Below are positions 45,843 to 55,517 of a stretch of DNA of 64,000 nt, one piece after another. The notes beneath the pieces are model-generated. The model was not told the origin of the DNA. It did no database searches and was given only the letters and a program-made list of their open reading frames with translations. The stretch spans positions 608,001 through 672,000 of the forward strand of contig CAVVTZ010000007.1 of the NCBI GenBank assembly GCA_963751275.1, in the 5' to 3' direction. Made by a program: the position numbers and the translations under genes. Every line of letters starts with the position of its first letter. Position 1 is the first letter of the stretch. The DNA comes from an uncultured Gemmatimonadaceae bacterium. Lineage in GTDB: Bacteria > Gemmatimonadota > Gemmatimonadetes > Gemmatimonadales > Gemmatimonadaceae.

Positions 45843-47390
45843 GCCTTCGCTCCGGTTTCTCTGAGGTCCACGCCGGTCATCTCCGCCGGCCGTTCGATGC
45901 CGAGCATCGCCAAAATGGTCGGTCCCACATCCTTCAGTGCGCCGCCGCCGCGCAACGGGCGCGCGCCATTGGGGTCTACAACGATAATGGGTACGGGGTT
46001 CGTCGTGTGGGCCGTGTGCGGGCCGCCCGTGACCGGATCGATCATCATCTCGCAATTCCCGTGGTCCGCCGTCACGATCAGCCGCGCGTCCACCTTCGAC
46101 GCCGCATTGATCACGCGCGCGAGGCACGTGTCCACGCACTCCACCGCCTTGATCGCGGCGGGGATCACGCCGGTGTGCCCCACCATGTCGCCGTTCGCGT
46201 AATTCACGAGGATGAAGTCGTGCGCGCGGCTCGCGATCGCCTTGCACAGCACATCGGTCACGCCCGCCGCGCTCATCTCGGGCGCGAGATCGTACGTCGC
46301 CACCTGCTGGCTCGGCACCAGCTCGCGCACTTCCCCTTTGTACGGCGTCTCATACCCGCAGTTGAAGAAATAGGTCACGTGCGCGTACTTCTCGGTCTCG
46401 GCGGTGCGGAACATTGTCATGCCGCGCCCGCTCACTTCTTCGGCGACGATCCGCGCGAGCGTGAAGGGCGGGAAGGCCACCGGCAGCGTGAACGTCTCGT
46501 CGTACATCGTCATCGTGACGATGTCGGCCTTCGGTCGCGCGCCCACCGCGAAGCCATCGAAACCCGGCGCCGTGAGCGCGCGCACGATCTGCCGCATGCG
46601 GTCCGCGCGGAAATTGAACAGCACGATCCCGTCGCCATCGCGCACGGGCGCGACCGGTGCGCCGTTCCGCTCGATCACCACGGGCGTGATGAACTCATCG
46701 CTCTCGCCGCGGTCGTACGCCGCCTGGATCGCGGCGAGCGGATCGGTGGCGCGCGGGCCGGCGCCCTCCACCGTGGCGCGATACCATTTCTCGGTGCGCG
46801 GCCACCGCTTGTCGCGGTCCATGCCGAAGTAGCGGCCGCCGAGCGATGCCACCACCGCGCGACCCTTGGCGCGCGCGATGGTCTGGCGCATGAACTCGAG
46901 CCCCGAGCGTGGCAGCGTGTCGCGGCCGTCCAGCAGCGCGTGCAGCGCGACGCGCGGCATGCCCTCCCGCTCGGCGAGATCGAACAGCGCGAACAGGTGG
47001 CGGTCGCACGCGTGCACGCCGCCGTCGCCGATGAGGCCCACCGAGATGCACCGTGCCGCCGCGCGCCTTCACGGCGCGGAAGAGCCGCACGAGCTCCTGG
47101 TTGGCGAAGAAACTCCGGTCGGTGATCGCGGTGTCGATGCGCACGAGATCGGTGGGGATCGCGCGGCCGGCGCCGAGGTTCATGTGGCCGACCTCGCTGT
47201 TGCCCATCTGTCCCGCGGGGAGTCCTACAGCGAGCCCCGACGCCTCGAGCAGCGTGCGCGGATGGCGCGACGTGAGCGCGTCCCAGTTCGGCGTTCGCGC
47301 GAGCGCGATGGCGTTCCCTTCGCGCTCTTCGCGATGGCCCCAGCCGTCGAGCACGACGAGGACCACCGGGCGCTTGCGCTCTTGCGGCAT
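45839..47390 (-). CDS. gpmI: 2,3-bisphosphoglycerate-independent phosphoglycerate mutase (frameshift near 47043)
   Basis: LVVLDGWG, GQMGNSEVGH, LDGRDT, NFRADR, AETEKYAHVT, DMVGHTG, TADHGN. Confidence 0.95.
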
Positions 47391-48539: not shown

Positions 48540-49229
48540 ATGTTCACCGAGATCAAGTTCCGCGATTTCCGACAGCAATATCCGGGCTTCCTCCCCGGCG
48601 TGCTGCTGATCCTCGCGGTGCTGGTGGCGATCGACCTGCTGCTGCTGGAGCGGCAGAGGAATTACGAGCAGGAGATCGCGGCGCTCCGCTCCAACATGAC
48701 GGAGAGCCAGCGCCAGCGCGGCGACGCGCTGGCCGATGCGCACGGCGCGCAGGAGAAGGTGAAGCTCGAGCTGGTGCGCCGCGAGGCCAAGTTCGGCAAG
48801 GTGCTTCACCTGTCGCTCGACGTCGACAGTGCGCAGCTGTCGCTCATGCAGGACGGGGCGGTACTGCGCCGCTTCGCCGTGCGGCTGGGTGTCTCGCGCA
48901 GCGTGGAGCGCGGCGACACGAGCACCAAGAGCGTGCCGCGCGGCGCCTTCGTCGTGCAGCGGGTGTTGGGGCCGGCGGACATGTGGGCGGCGCCGAAGTG
49001 GGTCTATACCGACCGACGGCTGACCGCGCCCGCCGATTCGATGGTGGCGGGGGCGCTGGGGCCCGTGGCGATCCTGCTGGAGGGGGGCGCGGTGATCTAT
49101 TCGCAGCCCAGCGTGGGGCCGCTCAAGGACAGCGCGTACGTGCTCCCGGGGGCGGCGCGGGCCAATGCCGATGACCTGCGGGCGGTGGCGCCCAACTTGA
49201 CCCCTGGCACGCCGGTGTACGTTTACTGA
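48540..49229 (+). CDS. Membrane-anchored L,D-transpeptidase-fold protein lacking catalytic His/Cys
   Basis: TM + coiled coil; VPRGAF, W..P.W and terminal GTPVYVY align with the next gene; LPGAAR replaces SHGCVR. Confidence 0.65.
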   Translation: MFTEIKFRDFRQQYPGFLPGVLLILAVLVAIDLLLLERQRNYEQEIAALRSNMTESQRQRGDALADAHGAQEKVKLELVRREAKFGKVLHLSLDVDSAQLSLMQDGAVLRRFAVRLGVSRSVERGDTSTKSVPRGAFVVQRVLGPADMWAAPKWVYTDRRLTAPADSMVAGALGPVAILLEGGAVIYSQPSVGPLKDSAYVLPGAARANADDLRAVAPNLTPGTPVYVY

Positions 49230-49230
49230 T

Positions 49231-50097
49231 ATGCGATCGGTCCGCGAAGTCCTGAGGGATGCCCCGCCGGGGATCTGGGTGGTCACCGTCACGATGGTGT
49301 TGGCGGGGGCGATCACGGCCGGCATGCTGTTCACGACCGTGCAGATGCGCCACCGCCGCGACGCGAACAAGTTCGTCGTGACCAAGGCGCACGGCGTGCT
49401 CGACTCGCTCACCCGGCAGGCGGACCAGGAGCTGGATTCGCTGCAGAACGCGCTCGCGTCCACGCCGGACACCGTGCCGGTGGGCCAGTACATCGTGGTG
49501 AGCATCGAGGACCGACGCCTGTGGCTGAAGCAGGGGGACACGACGCTCTACACGACGCGCGTTGCGGTGGGGAGCGGGAAGTCGCTGGTCCAGACCACGG
49601 GCGGGCGGAAGGAGTACAAGTTCGACACGCCGCGTGGCCGGCTGACCGTGCTGTACAAGGAGCTCGACCCGTACTGGCAGCCGCCCGACTGGCACTTCGT
49701 GGAGATGGCGGCGAAGAAGAAGGGATTCGGGGTCGTGATGCTCAAGCGAGGTCAGAAGGTGATGGTGAGCGATGGCTCGTGGTACGAGGTGCGCGGCGAC
49801 GATGTCGTGCGCGTGTACCCCGACGGCCACGTGCAGCTGCTGGAAGCGAGCGAGGGACACGAGCTGCTGGCGGACAAGAAGATCGTGGTGCCGCCGTTCG
49901 GCACGAACCAGCGGGAGTACAAGTGGGTGGTGGGCGGACACCGGCTGAATCTGGGCGACGGGTACGGATTGCACGGTACGGACGAGCCCAACTCGATTGG
50001 CCACGCGGCCAGTCACGGGTGCGTCCGGCTGCGGAACGAGGATATTGCGTACTTGTATAGCATCGTTGCGGTTGGGACTCCGGTCTACATTTACTGA
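49231..50097 (+). CDS. L,D-transpeptidase (YkuD family)
   Basis: VAVG, TPRG, GLHGT...ASHGCVRL, GTPVYIY. Confidence 0.92.
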   Translation: MRSVREVLRDAPPGIWVVTVTMVLAGAITAGMLFTTVQMRHRRDANKFVVTKAHGVLDSLTRQADQELDSLQNALASTPDTVPVGQYIVVSIEDRRLWLKQGDTTLYTTRVAVGSGKSLVQTTGGRKEYKFDTPRGRLTVLYKELDPYWQPPDWHFVEMAAKKKGFGVVMLKRGQKVMVSDGSWYEVRGDDVVRVYPDGHVQLLEASEGHELLADKKIVVPPFGTNQREYKWVVGGHRLNLGDGYGLHGTDEPNSIGHAASHGCVRLRNEDIAYLYSIVAVGTPVYIY

Positions 50098-50118
50098 CTG
50101 CTCGGCCAGCCATAATTC

Positions 50119-50146: not shown

Positions 50147-50253
50147 ATCGTGGCGCGCGCGTCATGCTTATGTTGGCAGTCCCGCTAGGGTCGATCAGTC
50201 GTTGACGAACGGCTAACGTCGTTTGGCTAACGTCTCATCGTCTGATTGACGTT

Positions 50254-50347
50254 CTCCTTGCTCAAGGCAATCCGGTGGCGACATCGGTGCGCAAAGCCAA
50301 GAGACAGCGGATCTATTTCCACGCTGTTGGTCTGGTTGCCAGGGAGG
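50254..50347 (+). promoter_or_regulatory. c-di-GMP-I (GEMM) riboswitch
   Basis: P1 CTCCTTG/CAGGGAG; GGCAATCC; stem CCGGTG-GCGA-CATCGG; GCGCAAAGCC; stem ACAGCG/CGCTGT; GGTTGCC. Order and spacing match GEMM-I. Confidence 0.85.
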
Positions 50348-50354
50348 TTCTCGA

Positions 50355-51338
50355 GTGATCCGTCCGCCTTTCCGTTGCCGCCGCATTCCGCGCGCGCTCG
50401 GAGCGATCGCCGTCGCAGTCGCGACGGTGATGGCCTCCGGTGCCGCCGCGCCTGCGCGCGCCGCGACGGTGGGCGGTTTCGGCGCCGTGTTGACTCCGCC
50501 GCCCAACGACCCGTTCAAAGTCGGCGGCCTCTTCGATCTCCTCGATTCGCTGGCCGGACTCAGCCACAAGCTGCGCGCCCGCTTCGTGTCCCCGGCGAAG
50601 CACGAAATGGCGATTCCGGCACTTCAGCGCCTGTTTGGCGACAGTGCGGCGACACGCCCCGGCGCCTACGCCGTGCGCGACAGCACACTCTCGCAGCCCT
50701 TCACCTTCTTCACGCTCATCCCCTTCACTGCCAAGCAGAAGGGACGGATCGGCACCTACCGCGTGGGAACGTGGCCCTATGAGCGCAAAGCGCCGCTCAG
50801 CGAGTTCTACGCGAATCCCGATGGCTTCATCGAGGTCACGCCCGAGAACCAGCAGATCTACGTCTCCGAGCACTTCCAGCTGCGCGACTTCCTCACGCAC
50901 GACCAGCAGGACGTGTGGCCCAAGTACATGGTCCTGAGCGAGCGCCTCATCGACAAGCTCGAGCTGATCATCGCCGATCTCAACGCGCACGGCGTGCGCG
51001 TGGCGCACCTGTCGGTCATGTCCGGCTTCCGCACTCCCGAGTACAACCGCCAGGGCGTGGGCGAGGGCGGCCGCGCGCGGGACAGCCGCCACCAGTACGG
51101 CGACGCCGCGGACATCTTCGTCGACAACGACGGCACCGGCCGCATGGCGGACCTGAACCACGACCACCGCGTGGACTGGCGCGACGCCAAGATCATCCGC
51201 GACGCCATCGACCGCGTCGAGGCTGCGCATCCCGAGCTCGTTGGCGGCGCCGGGATCTACAAGGGGAACCGGCGGCATGGCCCCTTCGTCCACGTTGACG
51301 CCCGTGGGACGCGCGCGCGGTGGGGGCGGCCGGGCTGA
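50355..51338 (+). CDS. Peptidase M15 (D-Ala-D-Ala carboxypeptidase/DUF882-like zinc peptidase), secreted
   Basis: VSEHF.LRDF, SGFRTPEYN, SRHQYGDAAD (H-x6-D), FVHVDAR; signal peptide. Confidence 0.85.
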   Translation: MIRPPFRCRRIPRALGAIAVAVATVMASGAAAPARAATVGGFGAVLTPPPNDPFKVGGLFDLLDSLAGLSHKLRARFVSPAKHEMAIPALQRLFGDSAATRPGAYAVRDSTLSQPFTFFTLIPFTAKQKGRIGTYRVGTWPYERKAPLSEFYANPDGFIEVTPENQQIYVSEHFQLRDFLTHDQQDVWPKYMVLSERLIDKLELIIADLNAHGVRVAHLSVMSGFRTPEYNRQGVGEGGRARDSRHQYGDAADIFVDNDGTGRMADLNHDHRVDWRDAKIIRDAIDRVEAAHPELVGGAGIYKGNRRHGPFVHVDARGTRARWGRPG

Positions 51339-51364: not shown

Positions 51365-51400
51365 GGCGCGCCGACCGTTGATCGGGGCGCCTTTTCATTT
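51365..51400 (+). terminator. Intrinsic terminator after the M15 peptidase
   Basis: GGCGCGCCGA...TCGGGGCGCC stem followed by TTTTCATTT. Confidence 0.65.

Positions 51401-53882: not shown

Positions 53883-55517
<1,635 letters not shown>

Follow-up and report, generated by a model that had tools for sequence, protein, structure and literature searches.

Upstream of a gene for an M15-family peptidase we identified a c-di-GMP-I aptamer whose closing stem, P1, takes up the Shine-Dalgarno (SD) sequence of that gene, and the best reading of this element, to which we assign a probability of about 0.7, is a translational OFF switch that responds to c-di-GMP. In the window (the whole 64-kb stretch of Gemmatimonadaceae DNA that was analysed), it is the sole Rfam match at gathering level, with the c-di-GMP-I covariance model (RF01051) aligning to positions 50256-50343 at 47.4 bits (E 3.8e-6) and the gathering cut-off being 35 bits. 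The class call of an earlier sequence-only reading is hereby borne out, and the places which it gave for G20, A47, C92, the GCGA loop, P1, GGAGG, and the GTG start all hold when read from the sequence. In Vc2 numbering, the window copy carries G14 (50260), G20 (50266), G21 (50267), C44 (50290), A47 (50293), G83 (50330), C92 (50339), and C93 (50340), and consequently shows the G20/A47/C92 pocket, the G14-C93 pair, and the C44-G83 tertiary pair (C50290/G50330), together with a GNRA-type tetraloop in register (GCGA, 50278-50281). The fold stability of the 151-nt region is about that of shuffled sequences (z 0.07), and the significance of the element rests on the covariance model and on conservation, not on folding stability. 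Table 1 collects the features.

Table 1. Features of the switch and the adjoining genes, in window positions.
Feature	Position	Strand	Basis
Second, divergent YkuD-like gene	48540..49229	+	PF03734, E 0.021, below cut-off
YkuD L,D-transpeptidase gene, directly upstream of the peptidase gene	49231..50097	+	PF03734, E 6e-26
P0, additional hairpin with its 3' end against the P1 5' strand	50229..50253	+	conserved in relatives
P1 5' strand CUCCUUG, an anti-SD that resembles the 16S 3' tail	50254..50260	+	
J1/2 and G20 (50266), G21, C22, A23, A24	50261..50270	+	RF01051 alignment, folding models
P2 with GCGA (50278-50281), U25-U42 in place of A25-G42, and C44 (50290)	50267..50292	+	
A47-A49, P3 without the 11-nt receptor, bulged G83 (50330), C92 (50339)	50293..50339	+	
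P1 3' strand CAGGGAG, overlapping the SD GGAGG (50343-50347)	50340..50347	+	
M15-family (LAS) zinc peptidase, 327 aa, signal-peptide-like N-terminus	50355..51338	+	Pfam, alignment, model

Among the variants of the class, the c-di-GMP-I-GGC model (RF03167) scores 46.7 bits, below its cut-off of 59, and expects a G at position 47, where the window RNA has A47. Moreover, the A20 that marks GEMM-Ib (cGAMP) aptamers is replaced by G20 in all 56 clade members, and the CUAA which, with a GAAA loop, defines the 11-nt receptor type is found in P3 of 0/35 members. By score and pocket, the window RNA is thus assigned to c-di-GMP-I and placed outside the receptor type, the GGC variant, and GEMM-Ib. A sequence search against solved structures matched nothing meaningful. 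The departures from Vc2 that had been pointed out earlier (CAATCC and GGTGCGC) are really present, though the suggestion that they alter specificity was rejected, as they amount to positions 25, 42, and 43, which lie outside the pocket and vary freely among the 56 relatives. In fact, eight pairings occur at 25-42 (G-C in 34, G-U in 6, U-U, A-G, A-U, U-A, and C-U in 3 each, and A-C in 1), and none of the three positions figures among the ligand contacts described in the portions of the structural papers at hand (PMC6140456; PMC3764141). The 'non-standard receptor arm' that had also been noted is real, but is not unusual by itself, being that of a known receptor-less GYRA type (PMC1950547, PMC11218506, both in part).

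P1 consists of seven base pairs between CTCCTTG (50254-50260) and CAGGGAG (50340-50346), and GGAGG at 50343-50347 is followed after 7 nt by GTG 50355. No other start among the first six in frame has an SD. Here, the 3' end of the genome's own 16S rRNA reads GATCACCTCCTTT, and relatives have ATG, GTG, or TTG at the position equivalent to GTG 50355. As the 14 nt from C93 to the start leave no room for a terminator, and as the scanner called none on the + strand between the aptamer and the peptidase gene, a terminator-based expression platform was rejected; a sigma-70 promoter scan returned 0 promoters. SD burial within P1, put forward earlier as the likely OFF mechanism, is supported by this lack of terminator space and by a layout that is kept in dozens of relatives. 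In SAM-II, SAM-III, and translational preQ1 riboswitches, the aptamer itself likewise buries the SD without a separate expression platform, though their ligands and folds differ from those of the window switch.

The extent to which the cassette is conserved was followed in several sets of relatives, which are not independent of one another. In two sets of homologous peptidase genes, the Rfam aptamer precedes 5/20 and 3/20. A search pattern with set letters at G20-A24, C44-C52, and the P3 base, and with C93 as its sole P1 letter, matched in 30 of 401 genomes of the family (reversed control, 1), and all 30 (two of them unpublished and excluded from later counts) possess the anti-SD, the SD, and the M15 gene, whose start codon lies 11-17 nt past C93 or, failing that, in frame a little further on. 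With the same kind of scan, metagenomes gave at least 123 matches in at least 121 loci, at least 10 of them of the window subtype. A covariance model built from 35 clade members then found one match of 70 bits or more in each of 36 of the 151 family genomes (a tally that includes the window genome and one unpublished genome), with the next score at 54.8, and in a phylum sample of 121, scores of at least 70 bits were confined to the family. Pooling gave 56 distinct members, 35 from the G20-fixing pattern and 21 from the model.

In these, G20, A47, and C92 are retained in 56/56 and the full 7-bp P1 in 52/56, while G83 is kept in all members scored (35/35 and 30/30). Pairing is preserved by 13 of 17 P1 pair changes, as against 8 of the 42 possible single changes. 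P2 and P3 together have 10 pairs with two-sided changes, a number reached in 0/500 shuffles; P1 has none and hence no covariation proof, as would be expected if SD function fixes its 3' strand. An M15 gene lies downstream in 52/52 members with enough downstream DNA and a YkuD gene upstream in 38/39 relatives with enough upstream DNA, and the riboswitch is absent at 6/14 YkuD-adjacent M15 loci. Canonical receptor-type c-di-GMP-I aptamers were also seen before non-syntenic M15 homologues (L005:1373-1465, L007:1252-1344, and L008:2499-2591), each with GAGG and a start just after, and here the same gene family is joined to a different aptamer subtype. In the open-access literature, judged mostly by title and opening of the abstract and without the first c-di-GMP-I, GEMM-Ib, and Hypr papers, in whose supplements clade members could be listed, we found nothing on the cassette, on Gemmatimonadota riboswitches, or on an M15 peptidase gene behind a c-di-GMP switch.

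The clade departs from the rest of the class. For published c-di-GMP-I aptamers, a GNRA loop is described as 'almost always' present, and those with GYRA usually lack the 11-nt receptor, as far as the partial texts go (PMC1950547, PMC11218506). The window copy resembles this receptor-less GYRA ('type II') subgroup in having GCGA in register and a continuous P3 lacking the 11-nt receptor, and its P3 base is that of the 62 other aptamers among the metagenome matches listed. In contrast, GNRA is in register in only 4/56 clade members, the P2 span runs from 16 to 33 nt as opposed to 19, and an SD comes immediately after C93; among those 62 others caught by the same pattern (matches listed), GNRA is found in 60, the span is 19 in 62/62, and an SD lies within 8 nt of C93 in 1. 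The count of 60/62 was made after removing 21 distinct metagenome matches, of which 8 look like real aptamers, 7 with GNRA and none with an SD at C93. With so few GNRA loops, conservation in the clade lends no support to docking of the tetraloop. In addition, A23 or A24 is altered in 19/56 members. Taken alone, the window copy is classed by its sequence with the known GYRA subtype, though the clade as a whole is not, and what appears new at clade level is that the GNRA loop is mostly lost, the receptor is absent, and P0 is added.

With Vc2, the clade shares the three-way junction, the G20/A47/C92 pocket, G14-C93, C44-G83, and the A47-A49 linker, and Vc2, too, is a P1-dependent translational OFF switch, according to the available part of PMC9262584. 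However, the ribosome-binding site masked by Vc2 lies distant from its aptamer (going by the title of Inuzuka 2018, cited in PMC9262584), whereas in the window P1 itself comprises the SD, is unbulged over 7 bp, and is joined by the P0 hairpin, with no GAAA/11-nt receptor. The scaffold is likewise common to GEMM-Ib (Geobacter Gs1761, pilM), which has A20 where the clade has G20. In the accessible text of PMC11705072, P1 of Vc2 is absent without ligand, its length matters, and G83C abolishes binding, while the receptor mutant A62G keeps its KD (194 vs 146 nM) and folds slowly. By this analogy, the clade would seem to retain what is essential in Vc2 and to lose what is kinetic, which fits a translational switch. 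Two further candidate contacts were set aside. A P2-P3 kissing loop in place of the tetraloop is suggested by CUGG/CCAG in a few members, with no common loop complement across the clade by eye. A CU:AG or CC:GG helical receptor is not supported, the window copy having C59-G79 followed by A60-U78, and 60-78 being G-C in 29/35.

We propose the following operation for the switch. At low c-di-GMP, P1 would be marginal and the 30S subunit would compete for GGAGG; the SD:anti-SD duplex (-11.6 kcal/mol) is of much the same energy as P1 (-10.0 kcal/mol), which could allow the ribosome to win the SD from a P1 without ligand. A small hairpin with G20-A24 may moreover draw off the anti-SD strand in many relatives; in the window copy, UUGCU (50258-50262) can pair alternatively with GGCAA (50266-50270). 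On binding, the ligand would stack between G14-C93 and G21-C46 and lock P1, and because the aptamer fold pairs 50340-50346, initiation should then be blocked, with the upstream transpeptidase genes presumably unaffected by the switch. With no transcription-timing window to meet, a translational switch may have let the tetraloop-receptor brace decay in this lineage, and the long P1, with P0 stacked on it, would compensate for the loss of the brace.

In the folding models, ligand-free P1 has a probability below 0.5 in 30/35 relatives, with a median aptamer-fold cost of 4.2 kcal/mol, the anti-aptamer hairpin exceeds 0.5 in only 19/35, and the SD is unpaired at 0.32 in the free and 0.14 in the bound clade models. 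For the window copy, ligand-free P1 reaches 0.93-0.97 in RNAs cut off at the start codon (0.92-0.97 in short folding windows) and 0.00-0.55 in those extended into the coding sequence, and the SD stays largely paired throughout the 16 folding windows (0.01-0.17 unpaired). Such modelling supports a switch across the clade and gives no clean ON state for the window copy. The high values in short windows and the SD paired in 16/16 would also suit a P1 that is mostly pre-formed with the aid of P0, whereby the RNA acts as a constitutive damper to which c-di-GMP adds little, and the eroded tetraloop (GNRA in register in 4/56) and the A23 or A24 changes, which could weaken binding and which we count against the OFF switch, would be signs of an aptamer that is weak or in decay. 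Little response in vivo has been published for one c-di-GMP-I switch, Bc1 (PMC11218506, in part). Yet the low ligand-free P1 in those 30 relatives speaks against pre-formation, and it would be difficult to account for the invariance of G20, A47, C92, and G83, amid loops and stems that change in a compensated manner, unless binding were selected; we regard such a damper as unlikely.

Upstream of P1 we noticed the P0 hairpin, which had been overlooked in the sequence-only reading. With at least 5 stacked pairs ending 0-1 nt before P1, it is found in 33/35 relatives and in 12.3% of shuffles, and several pair types occur per position among relatives. Its energy is modestly lower than that of shuffles (median z -1.3), the window copy (about -7 kcal/mol) being weaker than most relatives. 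In relatives, TATACT-like hexamers are seen by eye shortly upstream, which puts P0 near the probable 5' end. A direct repeat, GGCTAACGTC, occurs twice, 15 nt apart, at window positions 50210-50236; CTAACG repeats are also present in L033, L034, L036, and L140, and the repeats appear to be inserted between a shared TATGTT hexamer (50169-50174) and P0. Further upstream, a TGACC-N4-GGTCA-like palindrome spans the YkuD stop codon in 21/39 relatives and is degenerate in the window (50095-50108); it could be a repressor site, presumably of a TetR-like protein, or a small hairpin.

The location of P0 near a probable 5' end would also accord with a ligand that acts mainly on the mRNA level, through P0/P1 stability or Rho-coupled termination after ribosome exclusion. 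A related variant would have a net ON output, in which pairings with the coding region hide the SD more than P1 does, and ligand-free folds that include coding sequence do pair the SD. Nonetheless, since the aptamer fold necessarily pairs 50340-50346, an ON output would need initiation on a buried SD, and for action on the mRNA level no terminator fits the 14 nt and none is called there on the + strand. We consider these outputs, taken together, quite improbable beside translational repression by the ligand-bound aptamer.

As for the ligand, the c-di-GMP preference that had been read from G20 is supported by its presence in 56/56 relatives. In Vc2, G20 reads one guanine of c-di-GMP and the wild-type G20 RNA discriminates against cGAMP (PMC6140456, in part), though position 20 is called a selectivity factor and not a hard filter in the part of PMC9262584 available. 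GGDEF matches number 11 in the genome, of which five carry the canonical Asp, and there is 1 EAL match; with these the organism can, by prediction, make c-di-GMP. Two of the GGDEF genes look frameshifted (G000:C9:22206-23442 and C7:218873-219347), as do the L036 peptidase and, within the window, phosphoglycerate mutase-like and IMP dehydrogenase-like genes (46695-47041 and 53971-54270), and these apparent frameshifts are probably assembly errors. A membrane-anchored GGDEF protein encoded outside the window (G000:C7:837601-838050, +) bears a Hypr (GacA-type) signature, with Tyr/Asn/Ser/Asp at the spacing of GacA Y304/N339/S348/D374, and the organism may accordingly produce 3',3'-cGAMP as well. 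Additionally, A20 (GEMM-Ib-like) aptamers occur in Gemmatimonadota at L254 (G015), before a 102-aa ORF that is STAS-like by eye, and at L261 (G557), with GGGAGG directly after C93.

The Hypr-signature GGDEF, these A20 aptamers in the phylum, and the softness of the filter at position 20 could be taken to mean that the RNA responds to 3',3'-cGAMP, to both dinucleotides, or to some other related ligand. We think this the least probable of the alternatives, in view of G20 in every member, including the 21 found by the model and not by the G20-fixing pattern, of the sub-threshold GGC variant model, and of the lack of any Ser-type GGDEF in 5 relatives (4 with the switch), where 30 of the 53 GGDEF matches were looked at. 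Elsewhere, a second c-di-GMP-I aptamer of the genome (L001:1500-1592, -; G000:C13:5102-5193; 69.2 bits, GAAA, G20) precedes a 78-aa ORF, and in another family of the order, a c-di-GMP-I aptamer (L259:1501-1623) lies upstream of a type IV pilin-like ORF.

The controlled gene had been described as that of a peptidoglycan peptidase, and this stands at the level of the M15 family and its metal ligands, but not as regards substrate. The protein passes the Pfam cut-offs for PF05951 (28.4 vs 27) and PF08291 (28.4 vs 23.2), and 22 aligned homologues all share R226, H246, D253, and H313, so that the H-x6-D...H zinc ligands are intact. With 23.8 bits, however, it falls far below the cut-off of 185 for the MepK equivalog (NF053624); MepK is the closest named function but, on this score, membership is not indicated, and the closest named loci are from Gemmatimonadaceae. 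An AlphaFold model (pLDDT 74.7, pTM 0.81) gave M15 enzymes and hedgehog domains as the top rows in Foldseek, weakly (best E 2.2e-3), and the best fold match, the Streptomyces albus G Zn DD-peptidase (PDB ID: 1LBU), is a middling one (VIA Z 6.6, rmsd 3.4, 119 aligned). The M15 motifs S-G-x-R, H-x6-D, and H are common to the window enzyme, MepK/YcbK (NF053624, PF05951), and 1LBU, whereas the window enzyme is set apart by its length of 327 aa, extra N-terminal region, and acidic DxDxDG-like insertion. Two such acidic motifs (window 51123-51176), which form an insertion behind the second zinc ligand and recur among homologues in conserved form, represent a possible calcium-binding loop.

The N-terminus is basic and then hydrophobic, with RR in 19/41 N-termini of relatives. 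The enzyme is probably exported, and by prediction it cuts peptidoglycan. MepK cleaves 3-3 cross-links and is Tat-exported (PMC8262268, in part). The window gene adjoins L,D-transpeptidase genes, and a gene for an SH3 protein lies upstream along with the two YkuD genes. In E. coli, ldtD likewise adjoins mepK. After the peptidase stop codon, a GC-rich hairpin with a T-rich run (window 51365-51400) looks terminator-like by eye, though the scanner did not call it. Physiologically, the OFF switch would mean less cross-link cutting in the sessile state of high c-di-GMP. A more far-reaching idea, tentative and on balance doubtful, is that the clade forms a natural subclass, spread through the family, which trades the tetraloop-receptor brace for P0 on a long P1, giving a minimal reversible translational switch that ties c-di-GMP directly to a MepK-like enzyme removing the 3-3 cross-links which the adjacent L,D-transpeptidases form.

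Neither the class of riboswitch nor its ligand rule is new, and switches that bury the SD are likewise known in general. The clade serves as a natural experiment on the tertiary contacts that a c-di-GMP-I aptamer requires, since in dozens of relatives the pocket and C44-G83 are kept as the tetraloop and P2 length drift, in agreement with the view from Vc2 that the tetraloop contact mainly speeds folding. Moreover, the switch does without a separate expression platform and fits in about 125 nt. In a phylum that is common but has received little study, it suggests that a second messenger directly controls an enzyme of wall remodelling.
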